DNA from: Candidatus Thorarchaeota archaeon
Lineage (GTDB): Archaea; Asgardarchaeota; Thorarchaeia; Thorarchaeales; Thorarchaeaceae
Assembly (NCBI GenBank): GCA_016933575.1
Contig: JAFGAR010000064.1
Span: forward strand, 64,001-128,000
DNA length: 64,000 bases
Direction of reading: 5' to 3'
The translations under genes were made by a program, and so were the position numbers. Shown piece by piece: positions 1 to 17,139 of this stretch (positions are counted from its first letter, which is position 1; each line of letters begins with the position of its first letter). The notes under the pieces are model-generated. The model saw nothing but the letters and a program-made list of their open reading frames with translations. It did not search any database and had not been told where the DNA came from.

Positions 1-1800
1 CCAGATGCTATCGTTCAACCAATGACCCCTGAAGAGATTCGTTCACTCTATAAATTCGCAAATGCGGAAAAAATCCCTCTGGTTCCTAGAGGCGCAGGCA
101 CTTCTGGCTATGGTGGTGCAATACCACGAAAAGGAGGCGTTGTTGTTGATATGCGCCGTATGGATAATATTGTAACAGTTGATGAGAAGAATCTGACCGT
201 TGTTGTAGAACCCGGTATCTGCTGGTCCAATCTTCAACTAGAACTCAATCGACTTGGTCTCGACCTACGCTGCTATCCCTCATCTGCCCTCTCCGCCACA
301 GTTGGAGGCTGGGTAGCCCAAGGAGGCGATGGGATAGGTAGTTTGAAGTATGGGACTATCAACAAGAACTGTGTTGAATTTGAAGTAGTTCTTCCAAATG
401 AGAAGATAATTCGTACAAGTGATACAGATCTCTTTTGCGATACAGAGGGTATCCTTGGTATACTGACAAAGGTAACCCTAAAGATTAAGCCCTTGACCAG
501 GATCAAAGCCTTTGTCTCTAGCTTTCCAGAGAATTACCTAATGAATCTCGCAATCGAGAAGATTCTAGAAGACGGTCCACTCCCTTTCACAATAAAATTT
601 GAAGAATCTAAATACACAGACTTGAAGAAGTCTGTCTGGGAGGAGGACTGGAAATTCCCGTATCCTGTTCATCACTGTACTATTATGGTCGTCTACGAAG
701 GTGATGAAGAAGAGATCGAGACCGGTGCTGAAGTGGTTCGCCAAGTCACAGAGGCTCACAAAGGAGTCCTATATGATGACCATGTAGGCGAGCACGAGTG
801 GCATGAGCGATTCTACCCAATGAGAATCAAGAAGGCCGGACCTACCCTTGTAGTTGGACAAGCATTTGCACCACTCGAAAACTTAGGTGCTATCTTTGAT
901 GACTTCCAGTTTGAACAGGCATCTGCGAAGGCAGGTATTGATGGTTATGTCAATTCTAAGAACGCAGTCACAATGATGGGATATTTTCTCGAAGATGAAC
1001 GTCGTTCTTTCTATATGCTATCATGGTCTCAGAGCTTTGTCATTTTCAAAATTGCGCAACGTCACGGTGGACATCCACATTCAACTGGTATATGGTTCGC
1101 TAATTATGCACATATTTACTTCGGCAAACAGAGATTAGCTCGAATCCGAGCAGCGAAGCTGAAGTGGGATCAAAAAGAGATTTCGAATCCTGGTAAAATC
1201 TTTGCATATTGGCTTCCCTTCATGTTACGTGTGGGCAAGTACTTCATGTGGATTGGTTTCGATTTGCTACGGAATGGTTTTGGCAGGATTGCACCAATTC
1301 TTCTGAAATGGCTTCAGAATGTACCACCACTGAAGTGGTTATTACGGTGGGGTCGCGCTCACAGTCCTTGGCCGATTCAATACGGACTCGGGTGTTGTAT
1401 GGCTGATGGCGCAGCCGCAGTAGCATCACGATGGGATATAGAGAGATTCGGGATGCTCCCTCTCTTTGGACCCCGGCAGACGGATGTCCTTTGGATCTCA
1501 GGATCCCTTACAAAGAAGATGGCACCACGACTTCGTCGAATCTATGAACAGATGCCAGAGCCAAAGTATGTCATATCCTATGGCCAATGTGCAGCATCTG
1601 GTGGAATGTTTTTCGATGGATATTCTTTAATCGCTCCTGCTGATACGGTCGTGCCAGTGGACGTCTATATCCCCGGCTGTCCTCCCAAACCTGCTGACTT
1701 TGTGAGAGCTCACTTGATTTTACAGAACAAGATACGCGCTGGGACTACACACTGGCAAAAACGGTACGAGAATCAGGATTCGATGGGGTTGATTCAATAA
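1..1800 (+). CDS. nuoB: Fusion protein: FAD-binding oxidoreductase (GlcD/D-lactate dehydrogenase, VAO/PCMH family) + C-terminal NuoB-like [4Fe-4S] subunit; 5'-truncated by window edge
   Basis: Frame is open from base 1 (PDAIVQPMTPEE, typical FAD_binding_4 start). FAD motifs PRGAGTSGYGG, VEPG, YPSS..ATVGG and EGILGILT; FAD-oxidase C-terminal motif KWDQKEISNPGK. Then NuoB motifs WGRAHSPWP, GLGCC, PRQTD, IYEQMPEPKYVISYGQCAASGG and VDVYIPGCPP. Confidence 0.9.
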   Translation, partial: PDAIVQPMTPEEIRSLYKFANAEKIPLVPRGAGTSGYGGAIPRKGGVVVDMRRMDNIVTVDEKNLTVVVEPGICWSNLQLELNRLGLDLRCYPSSALSATVGGWVAQGGDGIGSLKYGTINKNCVEFEVVLPNEKIIRTSDTDLFCDTEGILGILTKVTLKIKPLTRIKAFVSSFPENYLMNLAIEKILEDGPLPFTIKFEESKYTDLKKSVWEEDWKFPYPVHHCTIMVVYEGDEEEIETGAEVVRQVTEAHKGVLYDDHVGEHEWHERFYPMRIKKAGPTLVVGQAFAPLENLGAIFDDFQFEQASAKAGIDGYVNSKNAVTMMGYFLEDERRSFYMLSWSQSFVIFKIAQRHGGHPHSTGIWFANYAHIYFGKQRLARIRAAKLKWDQKEISNPGKIFAYWLPFMLRVGKYFMWIGFDLLRNGFGRIAPILLKWLQNVPPLKWLLRWGRAHSPWPIQYGLGCCMADGAAAVASRWDIERFGMLPLFGPRQTDVLWISGSLTKKMAPRLRRIYEQMPEPKYVISYGQCAASGGMFFDGYSLIAPADTVVPVDVYIPGCPPKPADFVRAHLILQNKIRAGTTHWQKRYENQDSMGLIQ

Positions 1801-2979: not shown

Positions 2980-3432
2980 TTGATTACGATGAGGCTTTTC
3001 ATCGATTTCTTCCCGGTGCTTGTCTGGGCAGTATTAGTTATTGTCCTGATTCTCGGAATGTTAGTTGGATCTTGGGTATTGAGGCCTCATGTTCTCCAGA
3101 ATAGTGAAAAGACATCGAGCTACGAATGCGGTGAAGAACCAATAGGCCCCGCAAGAATTGCCTATCCCTACAACTATCTTGTCTATACTATCCTGTTTGT
3201 TGTTGTTGATGTGCTTGGCGCATTTCTGTGGTTACTTGCTGCATCCTCTTTTCGATTGAGCCCGACAATCGTTTGGCAAGTCCTTGTATTTGTGCTGATT
3301 CTTATGGGTGGTCTCGGCTTTGCCATGAAGATGCTTCCCCAGACTTTCCTCAGTGGAAAAGAAACTCTAGCACTATATCGCGAAGCTAAGGCTGCAAAGG
3401 AAAAACAAGAGCTTGAAGCAGGAGGTCACTGA
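2980..3432 (+). CDS. nuoA: Complex I-like subunit A (NuoA)
   Basis: KTSSYECGEEP loop, ILFVVVDV, 3 TM; GGAGG SD at 2971. Confidence 0.93.
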   Translation: MITMRLFIDFFPVLVWAVLVIVLILGMLVGSWVLRPHVLQNSEKTSSYECGEEPIGPARIAYPYNYLVYTILFVVVDVLGAFLWLLAASSFRLSPTIVWQVLVFVLILMGGLGFAMKMLPQTFLSGKETLALYREAKAAKEKQELEAGGH

Positions 3433-3436
3433 AGAG

Positions 3437-4081
3437 ATGCAACTCGATATATGGTTTGAAGAGGCTGAGTTCATTGTAATTGCTGCCATTGTCATTTTTC
3501 TTGCATACCTTGCACTGGAACATCGTGACATTGTCTACGCGGCATTCTTTTTTGGCTTCATGGCCTCTTTTGTTGCTGGTTTCTTTCTATTGCTTGAAGC
3601 ACCTTTCATTGCAGGTATGCAGATCGCTGTATACACTGGAGGGATTAGTGCATTGATAATCTTCGCAGTGCTTCTTCTACCCCGAGCCCAAGACTCTTCC
3701 TTGGAGGTCTTCGCTTCGCCTAGAAGAAGGAATGCTGGATTGGTACTATCAGCGATGGTTGGCTCATTGTCAGCAGCCCTAGCCCTCGTTTTTCCATGGT
3801 ACGAAACTTTCTCATCAGTGACTCCGCCACTTGAGAACAATCTTGAACTTCTCTCAAAATGGCTCTGGTCTGATCATGGTATCTATGTTCAGATGATTGC
3901 TCTCATCCTTCTCACAGCAATTGTTGGATCTATTGCTATTTTGAAGATGGAGAAAGCAGAACGTCTCACACCTATAGTAAGTGATTTTGGTGTTGAGTCA
4001 GTTCCTGAACCAATTGATGACGAAGCATCTGATATTGAAGATGAATCCCCGCAGAATGGGACTGAGGAGGTTGATACATAA
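3437..4081 (+). CDS. nuoJ: Complex I-like subunit J (NuoJ)
   Basis: LLEAPFIAGMQIAVYTGGISALIIFA motif; start moved to ATG 3437. Confidence 0.92.
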   Translation: MQLDIWFEEAEFIVIAAIVIFLAYLALEHRDIVYAAFFFGFMASFVAGFFLLLEAPFIAGMQIAVYTGGISALIIFAVLLLPRAQDSSLEVFASPRRRNAGLVLSAMVGSLSAALALVFPWYETFSSVTPPLENNLELLSKWLWSDHGIYVQMIALILLTAIVGSIAILKMEKAERLTPIVSDFGVESVPEPIDDEASDIEDESPQNGTEEVDT

Positions 4082-4401
4082 TGGTCCCCCTCTCCTGGTA
4101 TCTGGTGGTGGCGTTCATTCTCATAGGTCTCGGAATCTATGGAATGATGGTCAAGCGAAATCTCATACGTATTCTAATTGGAGCTGAAATCCTTGGTAAT
4201 GGAGTCAACATTGCCCTAGTTGCTGTTTCAATCTACAGCCCTGTCTTCACATTTACGGGACAGGGTTTACTCATGCTGGTGATCTCTGTGGCAGCAGCTC
4301 ACACAGCTCTTGCGATGGTTCTGATGCTTATTTACAATCAACGATACAAATCAGTTGACCTTGGTAGACCATTCAAACTGGAGGATGATAGCAATGCCTG
4401 A
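4081..4401 (+). CDS. nuoK: Complex I-like subunit K (NuoK)
   Basis: GIYGMMVKRNLIRILIGAEILGNG, GQG, 3 TM; the second conserved Glu (AAAE) is His here (AAAH). Confidence 0.93.
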   Translation: MVPLSWYLVVAFILIGLGIYGMMVKRNLIRILIGAEILGNGVNIALVAVSIYSPVFTFTGQGLLMLVISVAAAHTALAMVLMLIYNQRYKSVDLGRPFKLEDDSNA

Positions 4402-4903
4402 TGCATCGTCACTGGGTCGTGCAATCATCAATAAGCTGCCTGAGGTCGAGTCTAAACCACTTCAGGGAAATAAGATCGAGCTCCTGGTCCCTCATGAGAA
4501 AATTCGAGATGTGGTATCACTTATTGACGAATTGGTTCCCGATGCCTTACCCGAATCTGCATTTGGCATTGATCTTGAGGATGACAAATACGAAGTAGTC
4601 TACATATTTTGGTCTCATGAATCAACGATGCTCTGTCAGTTACGAGTTTCACTTGTAGGGGAGAAACCATCAATTCAGACTGTTAGCGACATATTTCCTG
4701 GGTTGGAATGGCATGAGCGTGAAACTAGTGAGATGTTCGGTATCACCTTTGAGAACCATCCTGACATGAGACCTCTCCTGCTGCCTGATGATTTGGTTGG
4801 AAAATATCCCATGAGAAAACGATTCAAGACCGATCGAAGTCGCCTTGAAGAAACTGGCCTTTCAACCCCTAGTCCTAGACCTGAACGTGGAGGTGGCGAA
4901 TGA
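4394..4903 (+). CDS. nuoC: Complex I-like subunit C (NuoC)
   Basis: WHERETSEMFGITFENHPDMRPLLLP...YPMRK signature. Confidence 0.93.
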   Translation: MPDASSLGRAIINKLPEVESKPLQGNKIELLVPHEKIRDVVSLIDELVPDALPESAFGIDLEDDKYEVVYIFWSHESTMLCQLRVSLVGEKPSIQTVSDIFPGLEWHERETSEMFGITFENHPDMRPLLLPDDLVGKYPMRKRFKTDRSRLEETGLSTPSPRPERGGGE

Positions 4904-6040
4904 ATGTGTCCAGATATCCTTGATGAAACCAGTGAGATCTGGTTTGGTCCTCAACATGTCAGTGCTCATGGGTGGGCTACAAAACTGAAACTTGTTGGAG
5001 ACTACATTGTCGAGTGTGACCCGAATGCTGGATATTTCCATCGTTCGGCTGAAAAATGTCTAGAGTTCCGTAATTTCAGGCAAGGTTCAATGGTATGTGA
5101 ACGTATCTGCATGATGGAAGCATTCGTTGCAGAATATCCCTATGTGGCTGCAGTCGAGAAGATTGTTGATCTTGAGGTCCCAGAACGCGCGAAAATCATG
5201 CGTACTATCATGATTGAGATGAATCGGATTCATTCTCTTCAGTTTTGGTGGGGTCAATTTGCAGGGGAGTTAGGTCTCTTTGCGATGCTGCTTTGGCCCT
5301 GGGTTGATAGAGAATATACACTTGATGCTTTTGAGGAACTGACTGGGTCTCGTCATACTGTATCCTATGTCACACCTGGCGGGGTTAAGTATGATTTCAC
5401 TCCCAAGTTCTTGGAAAAATTTGAAATTGCACTCTCTAGAGTGGAAGAACGAATCCCGATCTTCAAGGACATGTTTCTTGGTAGCCCTACGTTCAGGTTA
5501 CGTACCGAGGGAGTAGGTCAGTACACTGCAAAACAAGGTCTCAAGTGGGGCTTGAGTGGTCCTAATATCAAAGCTTGTGGTATTCCAATGGACCTCCGTA
5601 AGGATGACCCTGACTCGAATCTTGCATATGATATGATTGATTGGGAAGTACCCATTACAATAAACGAGAATCATCCTGGTGAATGCGATGCATTTGACAG
5701 ACTAGTTCAGCGATTCAAAGAAATTGAGACTTCAGTTGGTATTATCAGAAAGCTCTTACCTCTTGTCCCTGAAGGTCCAATCATTGACCCCAAGGCTCGA
5801 GCCAAAGTCAATCGTCTACCTGAAGGAGAGGGTTATGGTAGGATTGAGGGTACTCGTGGAATCACAACCGTTTGGTTGAAGACATTCGATAAGGCTCAGA
5901 CTCCATATAGAGCCAAAATACGTGGTCCTTGCTTCGCATCATATTATGCATTGAAGCATATTGTGCCAGGTGCTCGTTTTGCGGACTTTCCAGCGATATT
6001 TGGAAGCTTGGATCCTTATCCCGGGTGGTGGGACAGATAG
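4904..6040 (+). CDS. nuoD: Complex I-like subunit D (NuoD), without NiFe ligands
   Basis: FGPQHVSAHG, GYFHRSAEK, EMNRIHS, PGGV, PYRAKIRGP, C-terminal GSLDPYPGWWDR; no CxxC pairs. Confidence 0.93.
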   Translation: MCPDILDETSEIWFGPQHVSAHGWATKLKLVGDYIVECDPNAGYFHRSAEKCLEFRNFRQGSMVCERICMMEAFVAEYPYVAAVEKIVDLEVPERAKIMRTIMIEMNRIHSLQFWWGQFAGELGLFAMLLWPWVDREYTLDAFEELTGSRHTVSYVTPGGVKYDFTPKFLEKFEIALSRVEERIPIFKDMFLGSPTFRLRTEGVGQYTAKQGLKWGLSGPNIKACGIPMDLRKDDPDSNLAYDMIDWEVPITINENHPGECDAFDRLVQRFKEIETSVGIIRKLLPLVPEGPIIDPKARAKVNRLPEGEGYGRIEGTRGITTVWLKTFDKAQTPYRAKIRGPCFASYYALKHIVPGARFADFPAIFGSLDPYPGWWDR

Positions 6041-6053
6041 GAGGTGCGATGAG

Positions 6054-7199
6054 ATGCAGTTCGATTTCATAACTTGGCTTGACGGGCTTTATAATTGGTT
6101 CATCGGTCTCTTGATCTGGTTTTGGAATGTCATTGAATGGTTCTTCTTTTGGATCATTGATCTTATCAATGGAGTATGGGCCATAGTAATAATCCCTGAG
6201 AATTTCATGTTTCTATTCCGTTCTATTATATTCCCTGGACTCATCTTCATCGTGCTTGCACTCATTTTCAGTATCTGGTTCATCCGGAAGACATGGGCAC
6301 GAATTCAGGATAGACGTGGACCGACACATATGGGCAAGTATGGTGGTCTACAATTGTTTGCGGATGCAATCAAACTCATGGCTAAGGAAACAATAATTCC
6401 CGACAAGGCAAGACGTTGGGCTTATAGGATTCTACCTTCGTTACTCCTCTTAATTGTACTACTTCCCTTCGCATTCATACCCTGGGATCCAATATGGAAT
6501 ATTCTTGGAAATCCTGCCTTTCCCGACCTTTCTGTGAGCCTAGTGCTAGTCTTTGCATTTCTCACTGCAGTGCCTGTACTCTCACTACTAATCGGTTGGG
6601 TCTCAGGTTCCAAGTATTCTCTGATTGGAGGATTTCGAGCTGCAAATAACCAATTTGCCTCCGAGATACCCATGGTCATTTCTTCTATTGGTCCTGCAAT
6701 GCTTGCTGGTTCTCTGAGTCTCTTCGGAATTGTTCAAGCGCAGACCAGCATCTGGTACATTGTTCTTCTCCCAATCAACTTTACCACCTTCATGGTTGCT
6801 GCAATTGCCTCTGTAGGAACGTTTCCCTTTGATGCTCCCGTTGCAGACTCCGAGATTATCTTCGGGTGGCGAACAGAGCTATCGGGCATCTACTTCACGT
6901 TGGTCTATTTTGCTGAGTTTGCCGAACAAATGCTTTACTCAGCCTTAATGGTTGTACTCTTCTTTGGTGGTTTTAATGGACTTCCATTCTTACCAGGAAT
7001 TGTCAATTTCCTAATCAAGTGGCTTGTCGTATTATTCATCTTTGTAGTTGTGACATCTTCCTTCTATAGAATCAGACAGGACCAGATAGTGCACCTTTGT
7101 TGGAAATACTTACTGCCACTTTCAATACTTAATGTAGTTCTTGTCATGTTTGCAGTTGTCTACATACCAGGACTACTTCCGCTTGTGATAGGAGGATAA
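6054..7199 (+). CDS. nuoH: Complex I-like subunit H (NuoH) with Trp-rich N-terminal extension
   Basis: RKTWARIQDRRGP, GLQLFADAIKLMAKE, SKYSLIGGFRA, PFDAPVADSEI; GAGGTG SD before ATG 6054. Confidence 0.94.
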   Translation: MQFDFITWLDGLYNWFIGLLIWFWNVIEWFFFWIIDLINGVWAIVIIPENFMFLFRSIIFPGLIFIVLALIFSIWFIRKTWARIQDRRGPTHMGKYGGLQLFADAIKLMAKETIIPDKARRWAYRILPSLLLLIVLLPFAFIPWDPIWNILGNPAFPDLSVSLVLVFAFLTAVPVLSLLIGWVSGSKYSLIGGFRAANNQFASEIPMVISSIGPAMLAGSLSLFGIVQAQTSIWYIVLLPINFTTFMVAAIASVGTFPFDAPVADSEIIFGWRTELSGIYFTLVYFAEFAEQMLYSALMVVLFFGGFNGLPFLPGIVNFLIKWLVVLFIFVVVTSSFYRIRQDQIVHLCWKYLLPLSILNVVLVMFAVVYIPGLLPLVIGG

Positions 7200-7203
7200 T
7201 GCG

Positions 7204-7635
7204 ATGGGTTTCCTAAGTAATCTTGGTGAAATATTTCAAATCCTGAAACACGTCTTTCGTCAAACATTCAAAAGACCATTCACTTACTTCTATCCATTTG
7301 AAGACAGACCTTATCCTGAGAGAACCCGTGGCAGACACATCCACATTCGTGAGAACTGTACTGCATGTGCTCAGTGTGTGAGAGCATGTCCTGTTGCAGC
7401 AATTCGTATTGACAAGGAAGATAGAAAGTTCGAGAAGGATGCAGCTCTCTATTTTGATTATACGCGTTGCATTTTCTGCGGAGATTGCGTCAGTGCCTGT
7501 CGATTCGATGCACTTTTCCATACGAAAATCGTGGACCTCTCGGAGGGTGACCGTGATGACCTTATCTATGGCCCTGATAAGATAACAAAACTCGATAGAG
7601 ACCCTCTTGAGTGGCGTGGAAGGAGGTTCAGGTAG
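7204..7635 (+). CDS. nuoI: Complex I-like subunit I (NuoI), 2x[4Fe-4S]
   Basis: TYFYPFE..PERTRGRH; CTACAQCVRACP and RCIFCGDCVSAC. Confidence 0.94.
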   Translation: MGFLSNLGEIFQILKHVFRQTFKRPFTYFYPFEDRPYPERTRGRHIHIRENCTACAQCVRACPVAAIRIDKEDRKFEKDAALYFDYTRCIFCGDCVSACRFDALFHTKIVDLSEGDRDDLIYGPDKITKLDRDPLEWRGRRFR

Positions 7636-9134
7636 TGTTGTTTGGAATTCCCTTCATGGCACTATCACTCGCCGTGATGTTCATCGGAGGTCTCTTCATC
7701 TACCTGTTCAAGGCTAGCATTGGCGATGCAGCTGGTAGAATTGCAGTTGCTGTGTCTCTTGTAGGAACCATCCTGATGATTCCTCCATTCTACGAGCTCA
7801 TGATGTTTGGCTCATCCGTTGAAACAGCAGTATGGTCAAATCTACTTGAGCCATTTGGGCTGTACTTGGATCCAATTGCATTTCCAATCACTTTTGCTGT
7901 AGTAGTTCTTGGATTTCTATCAGTTGTCTATGCGGTGGGTTATACCAAACATACTGAGAACAAACCTACTTTTTTCGCAAATCAATTGTTCTTCATAATG
8001 GGAATGACATGGGTAACTCTTGCGACTAATATGATCGAGTTCTTTATAGCTTGGGAGCTTATGTTGGTGCCAAGCTACTTCCTGATTCTGTTCTGGGGTT
8101 TCCCTGAAACCAGAAAACGTACTGCTCTGAAATTCTGGTTGTACACACAATCTGGAGCTGTCTGTATCCTGATAGGCTTTGGACTTCTCTATGCTCAGGG
8201 TGGTTCATTTGTTCTGGCAAATATTGTTGCTAATGGTGACCTCATCTTCAAGGTCATTTTCATACTTCTAGCTGCTGGATTCCTTGTGAAAATGGCAGTT
8301 TTCCCAATCCACTGGTGGTTACCACCAGTTCATGCTGAGGCTCCAACTCCAATCTCAGTCCTATTGTCTGGTGCTATGATTGAAACCGGCGCCTATGCTC
8401 TGGTACGATTCGGTACCCTGACCCTTTACGATGCAGCGATATCGCTCTCAATCTGGGTAGCTGCACTCGGTGTTATCACGATGTTCTATGGCGGTTTCAT
8501 GGCACTAGCTCAGGTGGACATCAAGAGACTCCTTGCTTACTCCTCCGTTTCACAGATGGGGTACGTACTATTTGCTCTCGGTTCTGTTACAATCATAGGT
8601 GTTTCAGGTGGAATGTTCCATCTCATCAATCATGCTTTCTCAAAGGGTCTGCTGTTTATGACCGCTGGAGCTGTTATTCATCAGACCGGACTTCGTGATA
8701 TTAAGAAGATGGGAGGTCTCTCAAATAAGATGCCTATCACCGCCTTCGCAGCTGCCATCGGAATGATGAGCATTGCCGGTAGTCCTCCGCTCTCCGGATT
8801 CGCTTCGGAGTGGATGATGTTCCTCGGGGGATTTAATCGTGCTATAATTACCGATCCATTTACCCATATTGTCCTAGGAACTAACTTACCATTTCTGATT
8901 TTAGCAATTTTAGCTGTTTCCAGCTCTATCCTCAGCGCAGCATACATGCTTCGTTTCTTCTGGCGAGTCTTCCTTGGGCCTCATCCCGAAGAGCTCGAAG
9001 ATGTTAAGGAAAGTCCAAGATCCATGACCATTCCGATGATCATCCTTGGTGTCCTCATTGTAATCTTTGGAATATTCCCGAGCTTGGCACTAGATGTCAT
9101 TGTCCCGGCGTTTTCGAGTGCACTTGGTCCGTGA
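7635..9134 (+). CDS. nuoM: Additional NuoM-like antiporter subunit (second M-type / MrpD-related proton-translocating subunit)
   Basis: FFIAWELM, VKMAVFPIHWWLP..HAEAPTP, DIKRLLAYSSVSQMGY, NHAFSKGLLF, GFASE (NuoM-type TM12 Glu); GTG start at 7635 overlaps the nuoI stop. Confidence 0.85.
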   Translation: MLFGIPFMALSLAVMFIGGLFIYLFKASIGDAAGRIAVAVSLVGTILMIPPFYELMMFGSSVETAVWSNLLEPFGLYLDPIAFPITFAVVVLGFLSVVYAVGYTKHTENKPTFFANQLFFIMGMTWVTLATNMIEFFIAWELMLVPSYFLILFWGFPETRKRTALKFWLYTQSGAVCILIGFGLLYAQGGSFVLANIVANGDLIFKVIFILLAAGFLVKMAVFPIHWWLPPVHAEAPTPISVLLSGAMIETGAYALVRFGTLTLYDAAISLSIWVAALGVITMFYGGFMALAQVDIKRLLAYSSVSQMGYVLFALGSVTIIGVSGGMFHLINHAFSKGLLFMTAGAVIHQTGLRDIKKMGGLSNKMPITAFAAAIGMMSIAGSPPLSGFASEWMMFLGGFNRAIITDPFTHIVLGTNLPFLILAILAVSSSILSAAYMLRFFWRVFLGPHPEELEDVKESPRSMTIPMIILGVLIVIFGIFPSLALDVIVPAFSSALGP

Positions 9135-9144
9135 GGTGAATCAA

Positions 9145-11397
9145 ATGCTCTTTGGTCTACCAGAATATCTAATCATCGTCATTCCACTTGCAGGTTCCTT
9201 ATTTGTCCCAATAATTGGGAGGTATAGTACTCGTGCTAGAGACTGGACTCCTGCATTGTTGATGGGCATCTCTATGATTCTATGCTGGTCTCTCATACCT
9301 GACATTGGATCAGTCCCTAAGACCTGGAATTGGATCAACATTCCTGGACTTGTGATTCCCTTTAGTATGCTTCTTGACTCACTGTCCGTCATCATGGGTG
9401 TACTTGCTAGCACGCTCTGTTTTCTCATATACGTGTACAGCACCGAGTACATGGCACACGAGGGAGATAGAGACCGCTTCTTCTTCCTGATGCTTGCCTT
9501 CGGGGGTGGTATGCTTACCCTGGTCCTCTCAAACAACCTCCTGATTGCGTTTATTGGATGGGAGATCATGGGATTTTGTAGTTACGGACTCATTGGTTTC
9601 TGGAATGACAAGCGCAATCCTCCAGAGGTAGACCCAACTGGCTATGAGTCAAGTAATCCGTTGCTGCAGTTCAAGACCGAGGGCGAGTACAATACTCATT
9701 GCGGAACAAAGGCTTTCGTGGTAACAAGAATTGGTGACGCACTGATGCTGGGCGGCATCCTGCTTCTATTTACATTCACAGGGTCATTTCTCTTTCAAGA
9801 CACATCAATTGGAAGTCAGGCTGTTGAAGGTATTGCAGAACATGGCGGCTGGATAACTGCCCTAGCTGGTGTGGGTCTTCTGTTGCCCACGCTTTTGTTA
9901 ATCTTTGCTGGCGCGATTGGAAAGTCAGGTCAATTCCCTCTGCAGGTATGGCTCCCCGAAGCCATGAGTGGTCCGACTGCGGTTTCTGCTTTGATTCATG
10001 CTGCAACCATGGTCAAAGCAGGAGTCTATATCACTGCAAGATTTCTCTTGACAATCGTATCTGCTACAGAGACAAGCGGACACTCTTCATCTGCTATTGG
10101 GATGTTTCCGCTACAGATAGGCTTCCCTGATGCGTTCACCTTCTTTGCCATAGTTGCAATCGTTGGTGCTCTCACCGCATTCATTACTGGTACAATGGGA
10201 ATGGTCTCAAATGAACTGAAGCAGGTGTTGGCATTCTCAACTCTTAGCCAACTAGGCTATATGATGCTTGCAATAGGTACTGCTGGCATGTTGACGCATT
10301 ATGATGTTGCTTATCTGAGTAGCGTCATGCATGTCGTCAGTCATGGTGCATTCAAAGCGTTGCTGTTTCTCTCATCTGGTGGGATTATCCACGCGTTACA
10401 TACCAAGTATATGAGTAAGATGGGCGGGTTGAAGAAGTATATGCCCAAGACCTTTGCGCTTATGTGGATTGGAGTGCTAGCGTTGTCAGGAATTCCTCCA
10501 TTCTCAGGTTTCTGGTCAAAAGACTCAATCATAGAGCATGTATATGCACTTGGTGTTGAAACGCCTCTGGGAATTTTCCTGTTCATTCTTGCTATCGCAG
10601 CTGCGGCTTGTACAATCTTCTATAGCATTCGACTCATGGGAATGGTCTTCTATGGCCCATCAGAGTTTGACGAACATGACCAAGAGGAGGAATCAATCAG
10701 TAGCCATAATGACAAAGAGGAATCCGAAGAATCTCATGACGAACATCGCGGGGTACCCTCTGATCCAGGTCCAGCTATGATGATTCCGCTCTACATTCTA
10801 GCAGCATTCACTATCATTGCCTTCATAATCTATCCAATGATACAGAATATTGTCCTCCAGACTAATAGGGACTTGTTTATCATATTTCTTGAGGATATGG
10901 TAGCTGCGAAATTTGGTCCAGAAGGTTTAGTTCCCTTCACACTCACCATTGGAGCACTTGCTCTTGGTGGGATTCCAGCCTATTGGATTTACATTAAAAA
11001 CCAAGATACTCCAAACTCAATCATTCCAGAGAATGGAATTCTTAGGAAGTTGCACAACTTCTTGAAGCACCGCTGGTATATCAATGAGGGATACTATTGG
11101 TTTGTCAACAAGTTCCTCAGATTTGCTGATCTCTGGCGCAGGGAGATTGATGAGCCTATAATTGATGGCATTGACTTCAAGTCTGCAGCCACAGCCCAGG
11201 TACTTGCGACTAAGATTCGATGGTTTGATGATAATGTTGTGGATGGTTTTGCTGAGGCCGTGTCAACAAAGAGTGTTGAAGCTTCTGAGGTTGGACTTGA
11301 GTCTCAGACAGGAAAGATCAATGACTACGTCGGAGTGGTGATTTTCGGAGTAGGTCTCCTGATCATCATTGGACTTCTATCATTGGGGGTGCTCTAA
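9145..11397 (+). CDS. nuoL: Complex I-like subunit L (NuoL) with elongated lateral helix
   Basis: FIGWEIMGFCSYGLIGFW, KAFVVTRIGD, GKSGQFPLQVWLPEAMSGPTAVSALIHAATMVKAG, GFWSKD, terminal QTG..DY + TM; GAGGTGA SD before ATG 9145. Confidence 0.95.
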   Translation: MLFGLPEYLIIVIPLAGSLFVPIIGRYSTRARDWTPALLMGISMILCWSLIPDIGSVPKTWNWINIPGLVIPFSMLLDSLSVIMGVLASTLCFLIYVYSTEYMAHEGDRDRFFFLMLAFGGGMLTLVLSNNLLIAFIGWEIMGFCSYGLIGFWNDKRNPPEVDPTGYESSNPLLQFKTEGEYNTHCGTKAFVVTRIGDALMLGGILLLFTFTGSFLFQDTSIGSQAVEGIAEHGGWITALAGVGLLLPTLLLIFAGAIGKSGQFPLQVWLPEAMSGPTAVSALIHAATMVKAGVYITARFLLTIVSATETSGHSSSAIGMFPLQIGFPDAFTFFAIVAIVGALTAFITGTMGMVSNELKQVLAFSTLSQLGYMMLAIGTAGMLTHYDVAYLSSVMHVVSHGAFKALLFLSSGGIIHALHTKYMSKMGGLKKYMPKTFALMWIGVLALSGIPPFSGFWSKDSIIEHVYALGVETPLGIFLFILAIAAAACTIFYSIRLMGMVFYGPSEFDEHDQEEESISSHNDKEESEESHDEHRGVPSDPGPAMMIPLYILAAFTIIAFIIYPMIQNIVLQTNRDLFIIFLEDMVAAKFGPEGLVPFTLTIGALALGGIPAYWIYIKNQDTPNSIIPENGILRKLHNFLKHRWYINEGYYWFVNKFLRFADLWRREIDEPIIDGIDFKSAATAQVLATKIRWFDDNVVDGFAEAVSTKSVEASEVGLESQTGKINDYVGVVIFGVGLLIIIGLLSLGVL

Positions 11398-12978
11398 TTG
11401 CAGGTAGACTCTACAACTTTGATAACAAGTATTCCAATGAATATCCTCGTCCTCATACTTGTCATTCCTCTAGTTGGTGCGGTCCTTGCATACATCGCAG
11501 GCAGCAAGGGTGCACGTGCAATCACACTCCTGATTACGACACTCGAACTAGGCTTAGCCCTTCTACTCATTCTAGGTACTCCTTCAGTTGGTCCAGATCC
11601 TGGTGGAATGAGTTACACATGGATCTATACGATTGCGAGACTTGGAACCACTGTTGATTCTCCTGTCTTTCAAATCATTCTTGGTGTTGATGGAATCTCA
11701 GTAGTAATGATCCTCCTCTCCAATCTCGTCGTATGGATTGCAGCAATTGCATCAAATCATATCAAGAACGCAGAAGGTGTATACTACTCCTTATTCCTGC
11801 TCCTGCAGACAGGCCTCCTTGGAGTTTTTGTATCTCTTGATCTCATTGGATTCTTCATCTTTTGGGAACTTGTCCTTGTACCAATGTTTTTCATCATTGG
11901 CAGATGGGGCGAAGATGGAAGCAGACACGCGGCTATCAAGTTCTTCATCTATACTCATCTTGGTTCTGCAGTAATGCTCGTTGGATTCTTCTACATCTAT
12001 TTCATGTCTTATCAGTTCAATATTCTTGGATATCCAACTGCAGTCCCAACATTCAGCATGGTTGCGCTTCGGAACATCGGACTTGACCCAACCATTCAGA
12101 TAGGTTTTGCTCTTGCCATATTCATGGGTGCAGGCGTGAAACTTCCAGTATTTCCATTACATAACTGGTTGCCATGGGCTCACGTAAAGGCACCAACTCC
12201 TGGTTCAGTTATCCTCGCTGGAATTCTTCTGAAGATGGGTGGGTATGCATTCATCAGACTCGGACTTTGGATGGTCCCAGAAGCAATGGCTAGACTTGCC
12301 ATTCCCTTTGCCTTTGTGGCTGTCTTCACATGTATCTACGCTGCATTTACCGCACTTGCTCAGACTGATATGAAGAGCCTTGTAGCTTATACGTCTATCA
12401 ACCACATGTCATGGGTCCTACTTGGCGTTGCTGCGTATGCGGCTGCCTACAATTCTCCAGATGCAGCTATTCGAGCTGCTGCGAACTTGGCTATCCAAGG
12501 TTCTATATTCATGATGTTCTCACACGGCACCATAATCTCTGTCATGTTCATTGTAGCTGGGCAGCTCAAATATAGTGTAGGTACTCGTGAGATTCCCGAA
12601 GTTAAGGGATTGATGACACAGGCTCCTAAACTCTCAGCGATTATGATCATTGCTACCTTGGCAGCTTTCGGTCTTCCTGGATTTAGTGGATTCATAGCAG
12701 AGGCACTGGTCATCTTTGGAGCCATTGTCATTCATCCGTGGACCGCATTCATCGCGTTTGGCATTTTCTTGACAGTAGGCTACATGCTCTGGATGTTAAA
12801 TCGAATTGTCTTTAGTGATATTGACCCCGAAAAAAGCGTGAATGAAGCCGCACGAAGCGATCTCATTGCTCCAATCCTCATGTTAATTCCTGTGATTCTG
12901 CTTGGGATTTGGCCTGATCTGATATTGAATCTCGTTCAACCAGTTGTTGAACTGATGCTGAGCGGAGGTTTACCATAA
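11398..12978 (+). CDS. nuoM: Complex I-like subunit M (NuoM)
   Basis: FFIFWELVLVPMFFIIGRWG, KLPVFPLHNWLPWAHVKAPTPGSVILAGILLKMGGY, PGFSGFIAE. Confidence 0.95.
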   Translation: MQVDSTTLITSIPMNILVLILVIPLVGAVLAYIAGSKGARAITLLITTLELGLALLLILGTPSVGPDPGGMSYTWIYTIARLGTTVDSPVFQIILGVDGISVVMILLSNLVVWIAAIASNHIKNAEGVYYSLFLLLQTGLLGVFVSLDLIGFFIFWELVLVPMFFIIGRWGEDGSRHAAIKFFIYTHLGSAVMLVGFFYIYFMSYQFNILGYPTAVPTFSMVALRNIGLDPTIQIGFALAIFMGAGVKLPVFPLHNWLPWAHVKAPTPGSVILAGILLKMGGYAFIRLGLWMVPEAMARLAIPFAFVAVFTCIYAAFTALAQTDMKSLVAYTSINHMSWVLLGVAAYAAAYNSPDAAIRAAANLAIQGSIFMMFSHGTIISVMFIVAGQLKYSVGTREIPEVKGLMTQAPKLSAIMIIATLAAFGLPGFSGFIAEALVIFGAIVIHPWTAFIAFGIFLTVGYMLWMLNRIVFSDIDPEKSVNEAARSDLIAPILMLIPVILLGIWPDLILNLVQPVVELMLSGGLP

Positions 12979-14483
12979 TGCTGCAATTAGACATCTTGCT
13001 TGACAGCCTAAGGGCTTTATTAGCCCCTCTAAGAGACCTATTGCTCGCAATTGTACCAGCTGAATGGATCATGTCCCTTCCTGCTATTACTCTGGTAGTC
13101 TTTGGATTACTTGCCCTAATGGTCGGACTTCGATATAATCCATTAGTCATAAGCTTCATCGGTGTCATTCTTGCAACATTTGAGATGCTTCTGTTCGATC
13201 CCAGTGCTATGAGTGGCTATTCGTTTGGAACATTATTCATTCGCGATGCTTTCACCGATTTCTTCATCTACATTGTTCTTATCGTTGCTTTCCTAGTCTT
13301 GCTCTCTTCCACTCTTTGGGGGGGTGACAAAGGGACCTACAATTTCCTACTTCTCCTCTCTTTTGCAGGAGCTCTCTGGGTAATTATGGCGACAGATCTT
13401 GTAGCTCTATTTCTTGCCTGGGAACTGATGTCCACGCCAACTTATGTTCTCGTTGCTCTTAGTCCAAGACGGGAATCTGTAGATGGCGCTACAAAATACT
13501 TCGTTATGGGCTTGCTTGCAACAAACCTCATGCTACTTGGCATTGCTCTGACTATTGGTGTTACTGGAACCACTGACCTTCACACCATTGGAGTGTTCAT
13601 TAATAGCCTATGGGCTTCACCAGCTGGTAGTGAACCAGCGGTCTACACAATGCTTCTTGCAATGGTCTTGTTTATTGTTTCATTCGGATTCAAGGTCGGT
13701 ATATTTCCTGGATGGCAATGGGTTCCTGATGCATATGCAAGTGCTGATGGTAGTGTCACTGCTTATCTTGCAGGAGGTTCTAAAAAGACAGGAGTGAGTG
13801 CCCTTCTACGAATCTTGATGGTTGCATTCTTTGTTGCTAGGACTGAGTGGACTCTATTAATAGCTGGTGTAGCAATCCTAACAATGATCATTGGTAATCT
13901 ATTAGCTCTCGCTCAGAAGGATATCATGAGGATGTTAGCGTATTCCAGCATTGCGATGATGGGTTATCTCTTCATTGGTATCGCCGCAGCTAACGAATTG
14001 GGCATGGCTGCAGCTAGTTTTCATGCATTCACTCATGCAATAATGAAGACAGCTGCCTTCATCCTTGTGTGGATGCTATCTTTAAGACTCACGAAGAGAA
14101 TAACCTATGATGACCTCGCGGGATTGAACAAGCGAGCACCCATTGCAGCAGCTATGTTTGCCATACTGATGCTCTCTCTTGCAGGACTTCCTGTAGGTGT
14201 AGGGTTCTGGTCAAAATTAGTACTCTTCCAGAGTGCAATCCTCGCAGACATGTGGTGGTTGGCTTTGATAGGTCTCTTGAACTCAGTCTTCTCCTTGGGC
14301 TATTATTTACGAATACTGAAATATACTTACATGATTGAACCTGTTGATGACTCGAAATTAAATCTACCAAGAGTACCCCTATTTGCAGTAGGCATTTGTG
14401 TAGCTATTGTTCTCTTGCTGTTGGTATTTCCAAACCTTGTCCTTGATTATGCCTTTCAAGCGGCATTGACCTTCTTCCCATAG
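12978..14483 (+). CDS. nuoN: Complex I-like subunit N (NuoN)
   Basis: LAWELMS, ATKYFVMG, FKVGIFPGWQWVPDAY, GNLLALAQKDIMRMLAYSSI, GFWSK. Confidence 0.95.
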   Translation: MLQLDILLDSLRALLAPLRDLLLAIVPAEWIMSLPAITLVVFGLLALMVGLRYNPLVISFIGVILATFEMLLFDPSAMSGYSFGTLFIRDAFTDFFIYIVLIVAFLVLLSSTLWGGDKGTYNFLLLLSFAGALWVIMATDLVALFLAWELMSTPTYVLVALSPRRESVDGATKYFVMGLLATNLMLLGIALTIGVTGTTDLHTIGVFINSLWASPAGSEPAVYTMLLAMVLFIVSFGFKVGIFPGWQWVPDAYASADGSVTAYLAGGSKKTGVSALLRILMVAFFVARTEWTLLIAGVAILTMIIGNLLALAQKDIMRMLAYSSIAMMGYLFIGIAAANELGMAAASFHAFTHAIMKTAAFILVWMLSLRLTKRITYDDLAGLNKRAPIAAAMFAILMLSLAGLPVGVGFWSKLVLFQSAILADMWWLALIGLLNSVFSLGYYLRILKYTYMIEPVDDSKLNLPRVPLFAVGICVAIVLLLLVFPNLVLDYAFQAALTFFP

Positions 14484-14535
14484 AAATAGGTAGCAAGTAA
14501 ATTATCATAGAAGGATGCAACTCAATGCTTTAAAT

Positions 14536-15087
14536 TCAAATCTCTGAATCTCTCTCCCTTTCCTGCAATATAGCCAGTTTGGTACATTCTTCGAATAGCT
14601 TATTGATATTGTGTCCTGTGCGTGCTGATGTTTCAAAATAACGGACACTCAACCATTTCCTGAGCATTTCACCAGCCTCTCGAGGAACAAGTCTGTCAGC
14701 TCTATCAACTTTATTTGCAACTAATGCAATAACAGCTTCTGGGCAGACAGATCGGAAACTGTTGTACCATTCATTCACATTGAGATAGGTATCCGGTCTT
14801 GTAACATCATAAACAATGAATGCCATTGATGATCCAGTCATGTATCTTTGCCGAAGGTCTTTATACGTGGGTTGTCCTGCTAGATCCCACAAGACTACTT
14901 GCGTCTGAAAATGTTCTCCATCAATTTCAATATTTACAATCTTAACTGCTATACTAGTACCAATTGTAGCCTTATACTGCTCACCAAATCTGTTCTCCGT
15001 GTATCGCATTATACAGCTGGTCTTGCCAACTGCTCCATCTCCTAATGCCACCATCTTGAGAACATATTGCGGACCTTCATCAGTCAA
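14536..15087 (-). CDS. Rab/Ras-like small GTPase (eukaryotic signature protein)
   Basis: G1 GDGAVGKT, G2 YKATIG, G3 WDLAGQ, G4 NKVD, G5 ETSAR; no C-terminal Cys prenylation motif. Confidence 0.93.
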   Translation of the reverse strand: MTDEGPQYVLKMVALGDGAVGKTSCIMRYTENRFGEQYKATIGTSIAVKIVNIEIDGEHFQTQVVLWDLAGQPTYKDLRQRYMTGSSMAFIVYDVTRPDTYLNVNEWYNSFRSVCPEAVIALVANKVDRADRLVPREAGEMLRKWLSVRYFETSARTGHNINKLFEECTKLAILQERERDSEI

Positions 15088-15168
15088 GATAGTTACATCC
15101 TATTGCACTGCTCCGTTTAATAATCTGAGATTTAACCATTCTGGCAAAAATCGATACTTTGATTTCAT

Positions 15169-17139
15169 CTAGCACCCATGGGGCAACAATACAATGAATC
15201 TAGAACCCTTTGAATGATCACCCTTTACTCGATTCTCAATACGAATACTCCCACGATAATTGTCAATGATCTGCTTAACAAGGGTAAGCCCCACTCCTGA
15301 GATTCGTCGAATATGGTCACTCATTCCAGTGAACAGTCGCTCTTTGGTATGGTCATCAATTCCATCTCCCCAATCGAGGAATTCCATTTTCAGAAACTCG
15401 CCATCATTGATAACTTCTGTATTGACCTCTATGTACACATCCTTTGATGCTGTAAATTTTACAGCATTATGAAGAAGATTATAGAAGACGTCCTGAAGGA
15501 AGTCGTCAGCCATGATACAATAACTACCTCTCTCGATATTCGTCTTTACAGTGATTGGTCTATTTGGAAAAGACTGTTTAACAGTTTCAATGGCAACAAA
15601 CAACGAGTTTGCTGGGTCTGTCTTCTCAAGAGCAGGAGCAGATTGATTGACTAATGAGAATTTCTTCACATTTGATATCAGAGACACGCTCCGATTCACT
15701 TGCATCAATGCATTTTCAGCCATGATGCGGAGTCTATCTGGTAAGTATTCATCCTCTAATATCAATTCAAGACTTGCCATTATTCCTTGATGCATATTGT
15801 TGAGGTCGTGAGCCATCAGATCTGTTGCCCATTCAGCCCTTGCTAAAGCCTCTTCTCTCTGTTTCTGAGCCTCGATTCTTTCAGTTATATCTAACGAGAA
15901 TCCACCAATAAGCGGTGGTTTGCCATCTCGGAAGATTGGAAATTTATGTGTACGGAATATCTTGATTTTACCATCTCTGTCTCTGACTTCCTGAATTCTA
16001 TCAATTGGTCCCCTTACAAGAACTTTCTGATCCTCTTCAGTTAACATCGCAGCACGATCTTGTCTAAAGAGATCAATATTCTTGAGACCTTCCCAGTCAG
16101 TTCTTGGTGGCATGTTTTTCATATAATGATTTATGAAGACAACTCGGGAGTCATGGTCTTTGATATATACTGGTCCTGGCATATTATCTGCAAAAGCCTT
16201 GAATTGCTCTTGACTATCTTTTAATTGCTCGTCAGTTCTTTTTCGTTCGAGAACAGTCCCGAACATACCAGCAATTGTAGCAAAGACAATTCTATGGTCC
16301 TGTGTTAGAGGTCTCACTTTCCTTGATGCAATATTAATGACTCCAACTAATGAACGATCAGCTCCAATTATTGGCCAAAAAATCAGGGTTTTAATTCCTA
16401 TCGAAATTGCTCGAGACATTCTATCTATGCTCTCAGATGATTTGGTCACATCTTCAACAAAAAGCGGTTCTAGAGTTCGAGCAGTCCTTGCGACAAGATA
16501 CGTCGAATCATCCACGGATACACTATCTGCAATCGATGTGGTATCTAGATTCACTGAGGCTATAAGTTCTAGAGAATTGCTCTCTTCCACGAATAGACGA
16601 ATGGTCCCGACTTCAAAGTCTAGAGTGTCAATAAGTTCTTGAAGGACATCCTTGCAGACCTGGGATAAATTCTCAGTACTTAATGCGGCCTCTGCAATGA
16701 TACTATACGCTTTCCTCTCTTGAGCAATTGTTTTCTTCGACATTTCATCTTTAGTCATATCTGATGCGTAAGCGATAATGTATTTTTTACCAGAAATGTC
16801 CAGAGTATTCGCTGTAATCTCTAATATGACAGTTTCTCCGTCCTTGCTTGTGAAGGAATAACGGTCTTGGTCAACCTGGTGGTGTTTCTCCATTAGATTC
16901 GTGAATCTCTGTAATGCTTCTTCTCTTTGGTCTTCAGCTAGGACACTGGCTAAGTCTGAAACATCTTGACCTATTGCCATATCGTATGGGATTCCAACTT
17001 TATTGCTAAGCCATTTGTTAATGTATTCTATCTTCCTATCTCTTACTATAATGACTCCCTGTGGTGATGCCTCAAAAAACATCTTGAAAATCTCGCACTC
17101 ATCATTACTCTTCAATGCGCGAGTCATTTCATCATACAT
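15169..17139 (-). CDS. Soluble PAS-GAF-PAS sensor histidine kinase
   Basis: H-box MAHDLNN, N-box NLLHNAVKF, DWGDGI, GVGL; PAS (ADNMPGPVYIKD..DITER) and GAF (GVINIAS) segments; no TM. Confidence 0.92.
   Translation of the reverse strand: MYDEMTRALKSNDECEIFKMFFEASPQGVIIVRDRKIEYINKWLSNKVGIPYDMAIGQDVSDLASVLAEDQREEALQRFTNLMEKHHQVDQDRYSFTSKDGETVILEITANTLDISGKKYIIAYASDMTKDEMSKKTIAQERKAYSIIAEAALSTENLSQVCKDVLQELIDTLDFEVGTIRLFVEESNSLELIASVNLDTTSIADSVSVDDSTYLVARTARTLEPLFVEDVTKSSESIDRMSRAISIGIKTLIFWPIIGADRSLVGVINIASRKVRPLTQDHRIVFATIAGMFGTVLERKRTDEQLKDSQEQFKAFADNMPGPVYIKDHDSRVVFINHYMKNMPPRTDWEGLKNIDLFRQDRAAMLTEEDQKVLVRGPIDRIQEVRDRDGKIKIFRTHKFPIFRDGKPPLIGGFSLDITERIEAQKQREEALARAEWATDLMAHDLNNMHQGIMASLELILEDEYLPDRLRIMAENALMQVNRSVSLISNVKKFSLVNQSAPALEKTDPANSLFVAIETVKQSFPNRPITVKTNIERGSYCIMADDFLQDVFYNLLHNAVKFTASKDVYIEVNTEVINDGEFLKMEFLDWGDGIDDHTKERLFTGMSDHIRRISGVGLTLVKQIIDNYRGSIRIENRVKGDHSKGSRFIVLLPHGC

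Follow-up and report, generated by a model that had tools for sequence, protein, structure and literature searches.

The four-pump 2M form of complex I was reportedly described by Chadwick, Hemp, Fischer and Orphan in 2018 (ISME J 12:2668) for Nitrospira, Chloroflexi and other organisms. Complex I variants with an extra pump change the number of ions moved per electron pair, and this number sets the energy that is conserved, or the redox potential that can be reached by reverse electron flow. In passages of PMC9040806 that cite Chadwick 2018, the hallmark of 2M complex I is a 26-residue insertion in the lateral helix (HL) of the NuoL subunit, matched to the extra pump, and passages of PMC9040806, PMC7117926, PMC7300363 and PMC9038741 report such complexes from Nitrospira, Chloroflexi, ammonia-oxidising archaea, Angelarchaeales and marine heterotrophic Thaumarchaeota. 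For the archaeal 2M enzymes a duplicated M subunit is described, and movement of an extra proton has been proposed (PMC9038741, PMC7300363). Here we describe the nuo operon, and in particular the nuoL gene, in a 64,000 nucleotide stretch of a Candidatus Thorarchaeota (Thor) genome (assembly GCA_016933575.1, contig JAFGAR010000064.1, positions 64,001 to 128,000; hereafter the window, to which coordinates refer unless another contig or locus is named). The operon probably encodes a complex I-like enzyme with four antiporter-like pumps, in which the lateral helix of NuoL is longer by one 26-residue module to match.

Results

The lateral helix of NuoL

The nuoL gene (9145-11397, + strand) encodes 750 amino acids (aa) counted from the ATG at 9145. 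Its product scored 460 bits with TIGR01974 (cut-off 407.5), contained the Pfam domains Proton_antipo_N and Proton_antipo_M, and gave matches to NuoL/NdhF chains of the PDB down to 2.9e-79. The open reading frame (ORF) listed around the gene is somewhat longer (767 codons, 9094-11397, +), its start at 9094 lying in a stretch that overlaps the preceding pump gene, M', and that is not shared by the relatives. Because the relatives align only from approximately residue 14-20, and several of them have a stop codon inside the M'-overlapping part, translation probably begins at the ATG at 9145.

Translation in the NuoL frame showed that the span from WY to QTG (11074-11313, +) is 80 residues long and contains two DxxxxDG motifs, REIDEPIIDG and RWFDDNVVDG, at a spacing of exactly 26 residues. 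This confirmed what had been noted in an earlier reading of the same DNA (the original prediction). A span of 80-81 residues with the same 26-residue spacing is kept in 48 Thor-type NuoL ORFs of other genomes, which represent 46 distinct sequences (35 with 80 and 11 with 81 residues).

An AlphaFold2 model of NuoL, computed with a 111-sequence alignment, had a predicted local distance difference test score (pLDDT) of 88.5. In the model HL is a single continuous helix of 78 residues (643-720; 11071-11304, +), which is followed by transmembrane helix 16 (TM16, residues 725-746; 11317-11382, +), the predicted anchor at the proximal end of this strap helix. HL includes two modules of 26 residues each: module 1 (11140-11217, +), which starts with REIDEPIIDG and corresponds in the alignment to the one module that three-pump NuoL has, and module 2 (11218-11295, +), which starts with RWFDDNVVDG and is of the canonical WFDxxVVDG type. 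For the NuoL of a three-pump cluster found elsewhere in this genome, on contig C212, the prediction (pLDDT ~89) was an HL of 52 residues (591-642) followed by TM16 at residues 647-667. Thus, the lengthening of the lateral helix by one module, as claimed in the original prediction, is borne out by the models: the four-pump and the three-pump NuoL of one genome differ in predicted HL length by exactly 26 residues, that is by ~39 Å at 1.5 Å per residue. This is roughly the width of one antiporter-like pump subunit.

Module 1 aligns with the D563-P564-L565-N566 region of E. coli NuoL, where the residues after P564 (L565 and N566, with D563 adjacent) form the contact of the lateral helix with NuoM (PMC3274701). 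Foldseek paired the NuoL model with solved NuoL and ND5 chains (E ~1e-28); the root mean square deviation was ~11 Å if the target had the helix and TM16, and 4-5 Å for membrane-tip or focus-refined entries. Between TM14 and TM15 the protein has an acidic loop rich in Ser, Glu, Asp and His (EFDEHDQEEES..., 10660-10767, residues ~506-541), with pLDDT values below 50 at residues 521-532. Judged by the length difference and by the PDB alignments, this loop is apparently absent from E. coli NuoL.

Helix length and the number of pump genes

The three-pump baseline of about 50-55 residues, on which the original prediction relied, was found to be correct. The equivalent span of E. coli NuoL (WGFD..ENG) is 51 residues, and nine three-pump Asgard loci, including the J-K-L-M-N cluster on C212, have spans of 53-55 residues. 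In two two-pump Asgard clusters the span is 27-28 residues and the acidic motif is entirely absent. The spans in an alignment of the 111 nearest NuoL representatives fell into classes of 27-28, 51-57, 79-85 and 105-108 residues, with one sequence at 91. To judge from these classes, the span is a base of ~28 residues extended in steps of 26-27 residues across the family. The sequences and loci flagged for quantised spans were L100, L104, L099, P0151, P0153, P0159, P0192, P0227 and P0238.

To relate span to pump number, loci were counted as complete if at least 1.6 kb of flanking DNA extended beyond the run of pump genes, and helix length was scored both by a strict sequence pattern and by alignment columns. 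Complete loci with four pump genes had a helix of ~81 residues (n=33), those with three had ~54 (n=9) and those with two had ~28 (n=2). The gene order M'-L-M-N was found in ~45 Thor loci. It held in every Thor locus that was long enough, and also in the Heimdall-type locus L059, in the same-order locus L096, and in the metagenomic relatives L109 and L110; throughout these loci the span is 80-81 residues. The co-occurrence of the insertion with a fourth subunit, which had been proposed as a check, was without exception: 33 of 33 complete Thor-type and related loci had both four pumps and the long helix.

Outside this group, five clusters had helices that did not correspond to their pump genes. 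Locus L103, from the same phylum, has L, M and N with a span of 81 residues; L111 has M'-L-M with 81; L067 has L and one further pump with 82; L099 has four pumps with 108; and L113, a bacterial A-to-N operon, has three pumps with 106. According to the original prediction, an equally long helix in close archaeal homologues from three-pump operons would refute its reading of the insertion. Such helices do occur, in the distant archaeal loci L103 and L111 and, longer still, in the bacterial L113, but none was seen in a close relative. All five mismatches are in one direction, the helix being too long for the pump genes of the operon and never too short, as would suit a helix for which only a minimum length is required. 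Because mismatched clusters exist, helix length alone is unreliable as a pump count; across the clusters compared here, an extra pump calls for a long helix, but a long helix by itself does not establish an extra pump.

Some of these clusters have further features. The NuoL-like gene of L111 is in a [NiFe]-hydrogenase-like cluster (C, D, H, I, J, K, M', L, M) with only three pump genes, directly beside genes for an A/V-type ATPase. In L113 (5228-15115) the bacterial-looking operon A-B-C-D-H-I-J-K-L-M-N, with its three-module helix of 106 residues, is followed by F-type ATP synthase genes. The second cluster of the present genome (L001, G000:C212:34000-53000, - strand, 9278-15274) consists of a short NuoJ-like ORF, NuoK, NuoL (668 aa, with a one-module helix) and two pump subunits, whereas genes for B, C, D, H and I are lacking nearby. 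Of 24 genomes of the genus that were searched, only G007 and G024 have a similar cluster, and as the contamination of the assembly is 6.9%, the ownership of this cluster is not certain.

The M' subunit

The fourth antiporter-like subunit, M' (507 aa; 7611-9134, +; PF00361, 1.4e-72), is encoded between nuoI and nuoL. The gene postulated in the original prediction is real and intact, and it is conserved in the operon, with 65-90% identity across ~45 Thor loci. M' scored 299.5 bits with the NDH_I_M model (cut-off 263.8), although the HyfB, MrpD and MrpA models gave scores nearly as high. When a large protein collection was searched with M', the matches listed, at least 120, were all from Thor or Promethearchaeota or carried no name, and so did not bear on distant kin. 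It keeps the TM5 glutamate (Glu149), the TM7 lysine (Lys227), His341 and the TM12 glutamate (Glu400), the last of which is of the M type and distinguishes NuoM from NuoL and NuoN. The position of the central TM8 lysine of NuoM is occupied by Glu258 (nucleotides 8382-8384), and this residue is conserved throughout the M' clade (Thor, Heimdall-type and G025). The M-position subunit of the three-pump cluster on C212 retains the TM8 lysine.

Phylogenetic trees of the pump subunits were computed with LG+G4 on 101 rows and with LG+C20 on 37 rows. M' fell outside the canonical NuoM clade and grouped with the subunits that take the M position in Asgard three-pump clusters. The other M subunit of the Thor operon was inside the canonical clade, which is strongly supported and also holds NuoM of E. 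coli and the two M copies of Chloroflexi. Thor N was in the clade of E. coli and Chloroflexi NuoN. When M' and M of the four-pump archaea were forced into one clade, a group named after the tree had been seen, the tree was worse by 192 log-likelihood units and was rejected by the approximately unbiased (AU) test (p = 7e-51). Because of this placement and this rejection, M' is, as far as the trees can tell, a subunit recruited or retained from an Asgard-type lineage and no recent duplicate of M. A 2M complex that arose by duplication of NuoM is thus not supported by the trees for this operon, although M' exceeds the NDH_I_M cut-off and has the M-type TM12 glutamate.

In trees of the NuoL core, from which the helix columns had been removed, Thor-type NuoL grouped with the NuoL of Asgard two- and three-pump clusters (SH-aLRT, a likelihood-ratio branch support, 94-98), and Chloroflexi 2M NuoL grouped with E. 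coli NuoL. A single clade of Thor-type and Chloroflexi 2M NuoL was rejected (AU p = 0.010). When the helix class was mapped on a tree of 111 NuoL cores, no fewer than 25 changes were needed, of which the well-supported branches alone force at least 11. This is in line with convergent evolution as already described in the literature. The independent archaeal origin of the 2M design suggested in the original prediction is supported as far as separation from the Chloroflexi enzymes is concerned; as a claim of novelty it is not, since archaeal 2M complexes had already been published (PMC9038741, PMC7300363).

Origin of the extra helix module

The original prediction interpreted the two motifs as a tandem duplication of ~26 residues. 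This could not be demonstrated. The best ungapped pair of 10-mers in the NuoL span was indeed formed by the two motifs at offset 26, but their BLOSUM62 score of 26 was reached in 112 of 5000 shuffles of the span, a modest excess over chance, and the self-similarity of the whole 80-residue span at offset 26 was not significant compared to shuffles. Modules 1 and 2 are identical at 4 of 26 residues (15%), and a DNA-level search of 11050-11330 found no repeat. That there is one module extra follows from comparison with homologues and not from self-similarity. Elsewhere in the family such duplications can be seen directly. In L111 (7384-7542) two 78-nucleotide copies, 81 nucleotides apart and 83% identical, are a recent in-frame tandem duplication of one helix module, and the NuoL proteins P0137, P0148, P0153 and P0192 contain near-identical repeated helix units. 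In view of the DNA repeat of L111 and the near-identical units in these representatives, tandem duplication is clearly one route to long helices in the family. For the Thor lineage a tandem duplication of the HL module is plausible.

The two modules also differ in type. In 10 of the 11 four-pump helices scored, module 2 had mean best 16-mer scores of 24-33 against the single modules of the bacterial clade and of 8-13 against archaeal ones, P0125 being the weak case (~13 against the bacterial and 8 against the archaeal type). In these helices module 2 resembles the bacterial-clade module with the canonical form WFDxxVVDGxVN; in the Thor pair, module 1 does not. Three relatives, P0130, P0127 and L096, have a module 1 of the archaeal type; in Thor itself module 1 is ambiguous (14-17 against the bacterial and 8-12 against the archaeal type). 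The module types would match the pumps presumed to lie beneath them, with Asgard-type M' below the first module and canonical M below the second. Such a match can be read as a graft of half-arms or as adaptation of each module to its partner.

The operon and the NuoB fusion

Pfam and NCBIfam searches identified all eleven core subunits (A, B, C, D, H, I, J, K, L, M, N) at the operon, which reads A-J-K-C-D-H-I-M'-L-M-N on the + strand, with a fused NuoB upstream. The genes preceding M' are nuoA (2980-3432), nuoJ (3413-4081), nuoK (4081-4401), nuoC (4355-4903), nuoD (4904-6040), nuoH (5961-7199, the true start being probably later) and nuoI (7204-7635), all on the + strand and assigned with Pfam; the order from nuoA to nuoI was also found in ~40 Thor loci. 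Downstream of nuoL are the canonical-type nuoM (11398-12978, +; 526 aa; NDH_I_M 417.5 bits) and nuoN (12978-14483, +; 501 aa), whose best NCBIfam model was NDH_I_N with 299.3 bits, below the cut-off of 332.6. Among public sequencing runs, none of RNA was listed for positions 7200-11400.

The fused gene lies 1.2 kb upstream of nuoA. Its 3' part occupies positions 1-1800 (+), and the full gene (646 aa; G000:C38:63861-65800; L107:11861-13801) begins before the window. The N-terminal two thirds of the protein are a flavin adenine dinucleotide (FAD)-linked oxidase of the GlcD/D-lactate dehydrogenase type (Pfam FAD_binding_4 and FAD-oxidase_C), and the C-terminal domain (Oxidored_q6; NCBIfam 180.9 bits, cut-off 116) is the only NuoB at the operon. 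Among 24 same-genus genomes, 20 or more carry the fused frame (650-690 aa, 78-87% identity), always ~9.4 kb upstream of nuoL, and outside the genus NuoB is unfused (144-181 aa). The relative L109 has a separate FAD_binding_4 gene after nuoN. The FAD domain fused to NuoB may serve as the electron donor or input module. The NADH-oxidising module of the canonical 14-subunit NADH:quinone oxidoreductase (NuoE, NuoF, NuoG) was not found in the operon, and NuoF (PF01512) had no match in the whole genome G000, the assembly of which is 85.5% complete. The same genome has six homologues of NuoB or hydrogenase small subunits, of which contig C57 carries four and C156 one.

Other related enzymes were considered and rejected as identities of the complex. 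For the F420H2 dehydrogenase (Fpo), FpoL scored 308 bits (cut-off 1050) and FpoD 246.5 (cut-off 600). All models of the Mrp antiporter were far below their cut-offs, and MrpE, MrpF and MrpG were missing from the operon. As to a membrane-bound hydrogenase, NuoD had its best matches with NuoD models, the hydrogenase Pfam model being marginal (25.4 versus 25.8 bits). By eye, in the unaligned sequence, NuoD reads ERICMME where hydrogenases have RxCGxC and where NuoD has the quinone-binding tyrosine, and its C-terminal end, DPYPGWWDR, has no CxxC; the pocket may be neither that of a hydrogenase nor a standard quinone site. Directly downstream of nuoN, on the opposite strand (14536-15087, -), is a gene for a small GTPase of the Ras/Roc family, which is typical of Asgard genomes.

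Discussion

In the arrangement that we favour for the Thor enzyme, the pumps would likely be ordered N, M, M', L from the quinone-site end, and the amphipathic lateral helix of NuoL would strap them together, with TM16 clamping it at the proximal end. The helix would consist of a base of ~28 residues and of two 26-residue modules instead of one, offering one acidic (D/E)xxxx(D)G contact motif for each pump crossed, so that module 1 would lie over M' and module 2 over the canonical-type NuoM. M' retains the ionisable residues of a working proton channel. By the argument published for 2M complexes, the enzyme would then move one more ion per turnover than three-pump complex I, or would use one more in reverse.

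Several observations weigh against this arrangement. The genes are ordered M'-L-M-N, unlike the pumps in the proposed arm. The AlphaFold2 model covers the NuoL chain alone. The glutamate in place of the central TM8 lysine means that, to judge by this residue, the channel chemistry of M' is different from that of NuoM, and NuoD is apparently without the quinone-binding tyrosine. The helices of L103, L111, L067, L099 and L113 are longer than their pump genes explain, and three-pump complexes of Ca. Manganitrophaceae also bear the helix insertion (Yu et al., PMC9040806). The last two observations are what one would expect if the long helix were a lineage trait independent of pump number, with the extra length binding lipid, another subunit or nothing, and with the adjacency of M' a coincidence. 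We regard this as improbable, because no exception was found among the 33 complete Thor, Heimdall and G025 loci, the mismatches are only toward over-long helices, the steps are quantised at 26-27 residues family-wide, and in the three-pump cluster of this very genome the helix is 52 residues long. The position of the M' gene upstream of nuoL, and not between L and M, would be compatible with yet another possibility, namely that M' docks distally beyond L or serves a separate Mrp-like module, the helix being extended for some other contact; the nearness of the HyfB, MrpD and MrpA scores to the NuoM score can be taken in the same sense. This seems to us very improbable: the helix runs proximally from L, so that a distal pump would need no longer strap, the relatives of M' in Asgard three-pump clusters are the subunit encoded beside L, in the M position, and an Mrp-like module would lack MrpE, MrpF and MrpG in the operon.

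The origin of the extra module is a separate question, and the explanation competing with an in-gene tandem duplication is that Asgard-type L, M' and module 1 were joined to canonical-type M, N and module 2, perhaps with TM16, either by recombination or by stepwise recruitment during which the helix adapted. The division of the pump subunits between the trees agrees with it, M' and L being in Asgard-type clades, M and N in the E. coli/Chloroflexi NuoM and NuoN clades, and M' being separated from M by the AU test. So do the bacterial type of module 2 in all but one of the helices scored, the archaeal type of module 1 in P0130, P0127 and L096, and the low identity of the two modules together with the missing DNA repeat. 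However, module 1 of Thor is itself ambiguous in type, the likeness of a short helix motif may be convergent and imposed by the partner subunit, and recent tandem duplications of exactly such a unit are known elsewhere (L111, P0137, P0153 and P0192); moreover, the segments do not have the length that a recombination test requires. We consider this origin of the module possible, though less likely than not. Its more far-reaching version is that the whole arm is a graft and no 2M duplication, an Asgard-type distal half (L and M') having been joined to a canonical-type proximal half (M and N), and that the helix is a modular ruler, with a base of ~28 residues and a module of 26-27 residues for every pump crossed, in which the type of each module matches the pump beneath it. 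This we think rather unlikely as it stands. If true, five ion translocations, or reverse electron flow, would be coupled to a flavin-level substrate.

Under the four-pump reading, a whole Asgard class carries a four-pump enzyme, the strap helix scales in steps of 26 residues, and the extra pump was recruited, not duplicated. The recruited pump, the helix as a modular ruler in Asgard enzymes of all three pump numbers (two, three and four), and the unreliability of helix length as a count go beyond what had been seen in the first reading of the DNA. The enzymes with two, three and four pumps form a natural series in one phylum, in which the co-evolution of helix and pumps, as well as assembly, could be tested. 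For genome annotation there is a caution, as helix length alone does not give the number of pumps.

Comparison with known systems

A literature search found no paper describing a four-pump Thorarchaeota complex or the NuoB fusion, which does not prove that they are unpublished, and the four-pump Thor enzyme is unmentioned in a recent survey of Asgard complex I-like enzymes. The fold of NuoL is that of E. coli complex I NuoL (PDB 3RKO; PMC3274701), with a Foldseek E value of ~1e-25 and a target-normalised TM-score of 0.77-0.85. The two proteins share the WxxD start, the xxG end before TM16 and the contact motif (D563-N566 in E. coli), but the E. coli helix has one module and 51 residues whereas that of Thor has two modules and 80 residues.

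With 2M complex I the Thor operon shares a Nuo cassette, a fourth antiporter-like subunit and an insertion of ~26 residues in the NuoL helix. The Chloroflexi 2M loci (L069-L091) have a span of 82 residues with LIDG and VISG motifs 26 residues apart. In these loci, however, the order is L-M-M-N and both M copies are inside the canonical NuoM clade, whereas Thor M' is outside this clade and precedes nuoL; in addition, the core of Thor-type NuoL groups elsewhere, and Thor NuoB is fused to an FAD oxidase. Complex_I_3 of Ca. Manganitrophaceae resembles the Thor enzyme in that a 26-residue HL insertion is tied to extra pumps and the arm is a mosaic of pumps of mixed origin, but it is bacterial, has five pumps, and has MrpD-like subunits in place of NuoL (PMC9040806). 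The archaeal 2M enzymes of Nitrososphaerales ammonia oxidisers, Ca. Angelarchaeales and marine heterotrophic Thaumarchaeota ('clade 2') are, like the Thor enzyme, without NuoEFG (PMC9038741, PMC7300363); they belong to a different phylum, and the comparison with Thor-type M' and NuoL is by description only. The four-pump design is thus already known, archaeal forms included, and the Thor enzyme is a clear new example of it in a new lineage.

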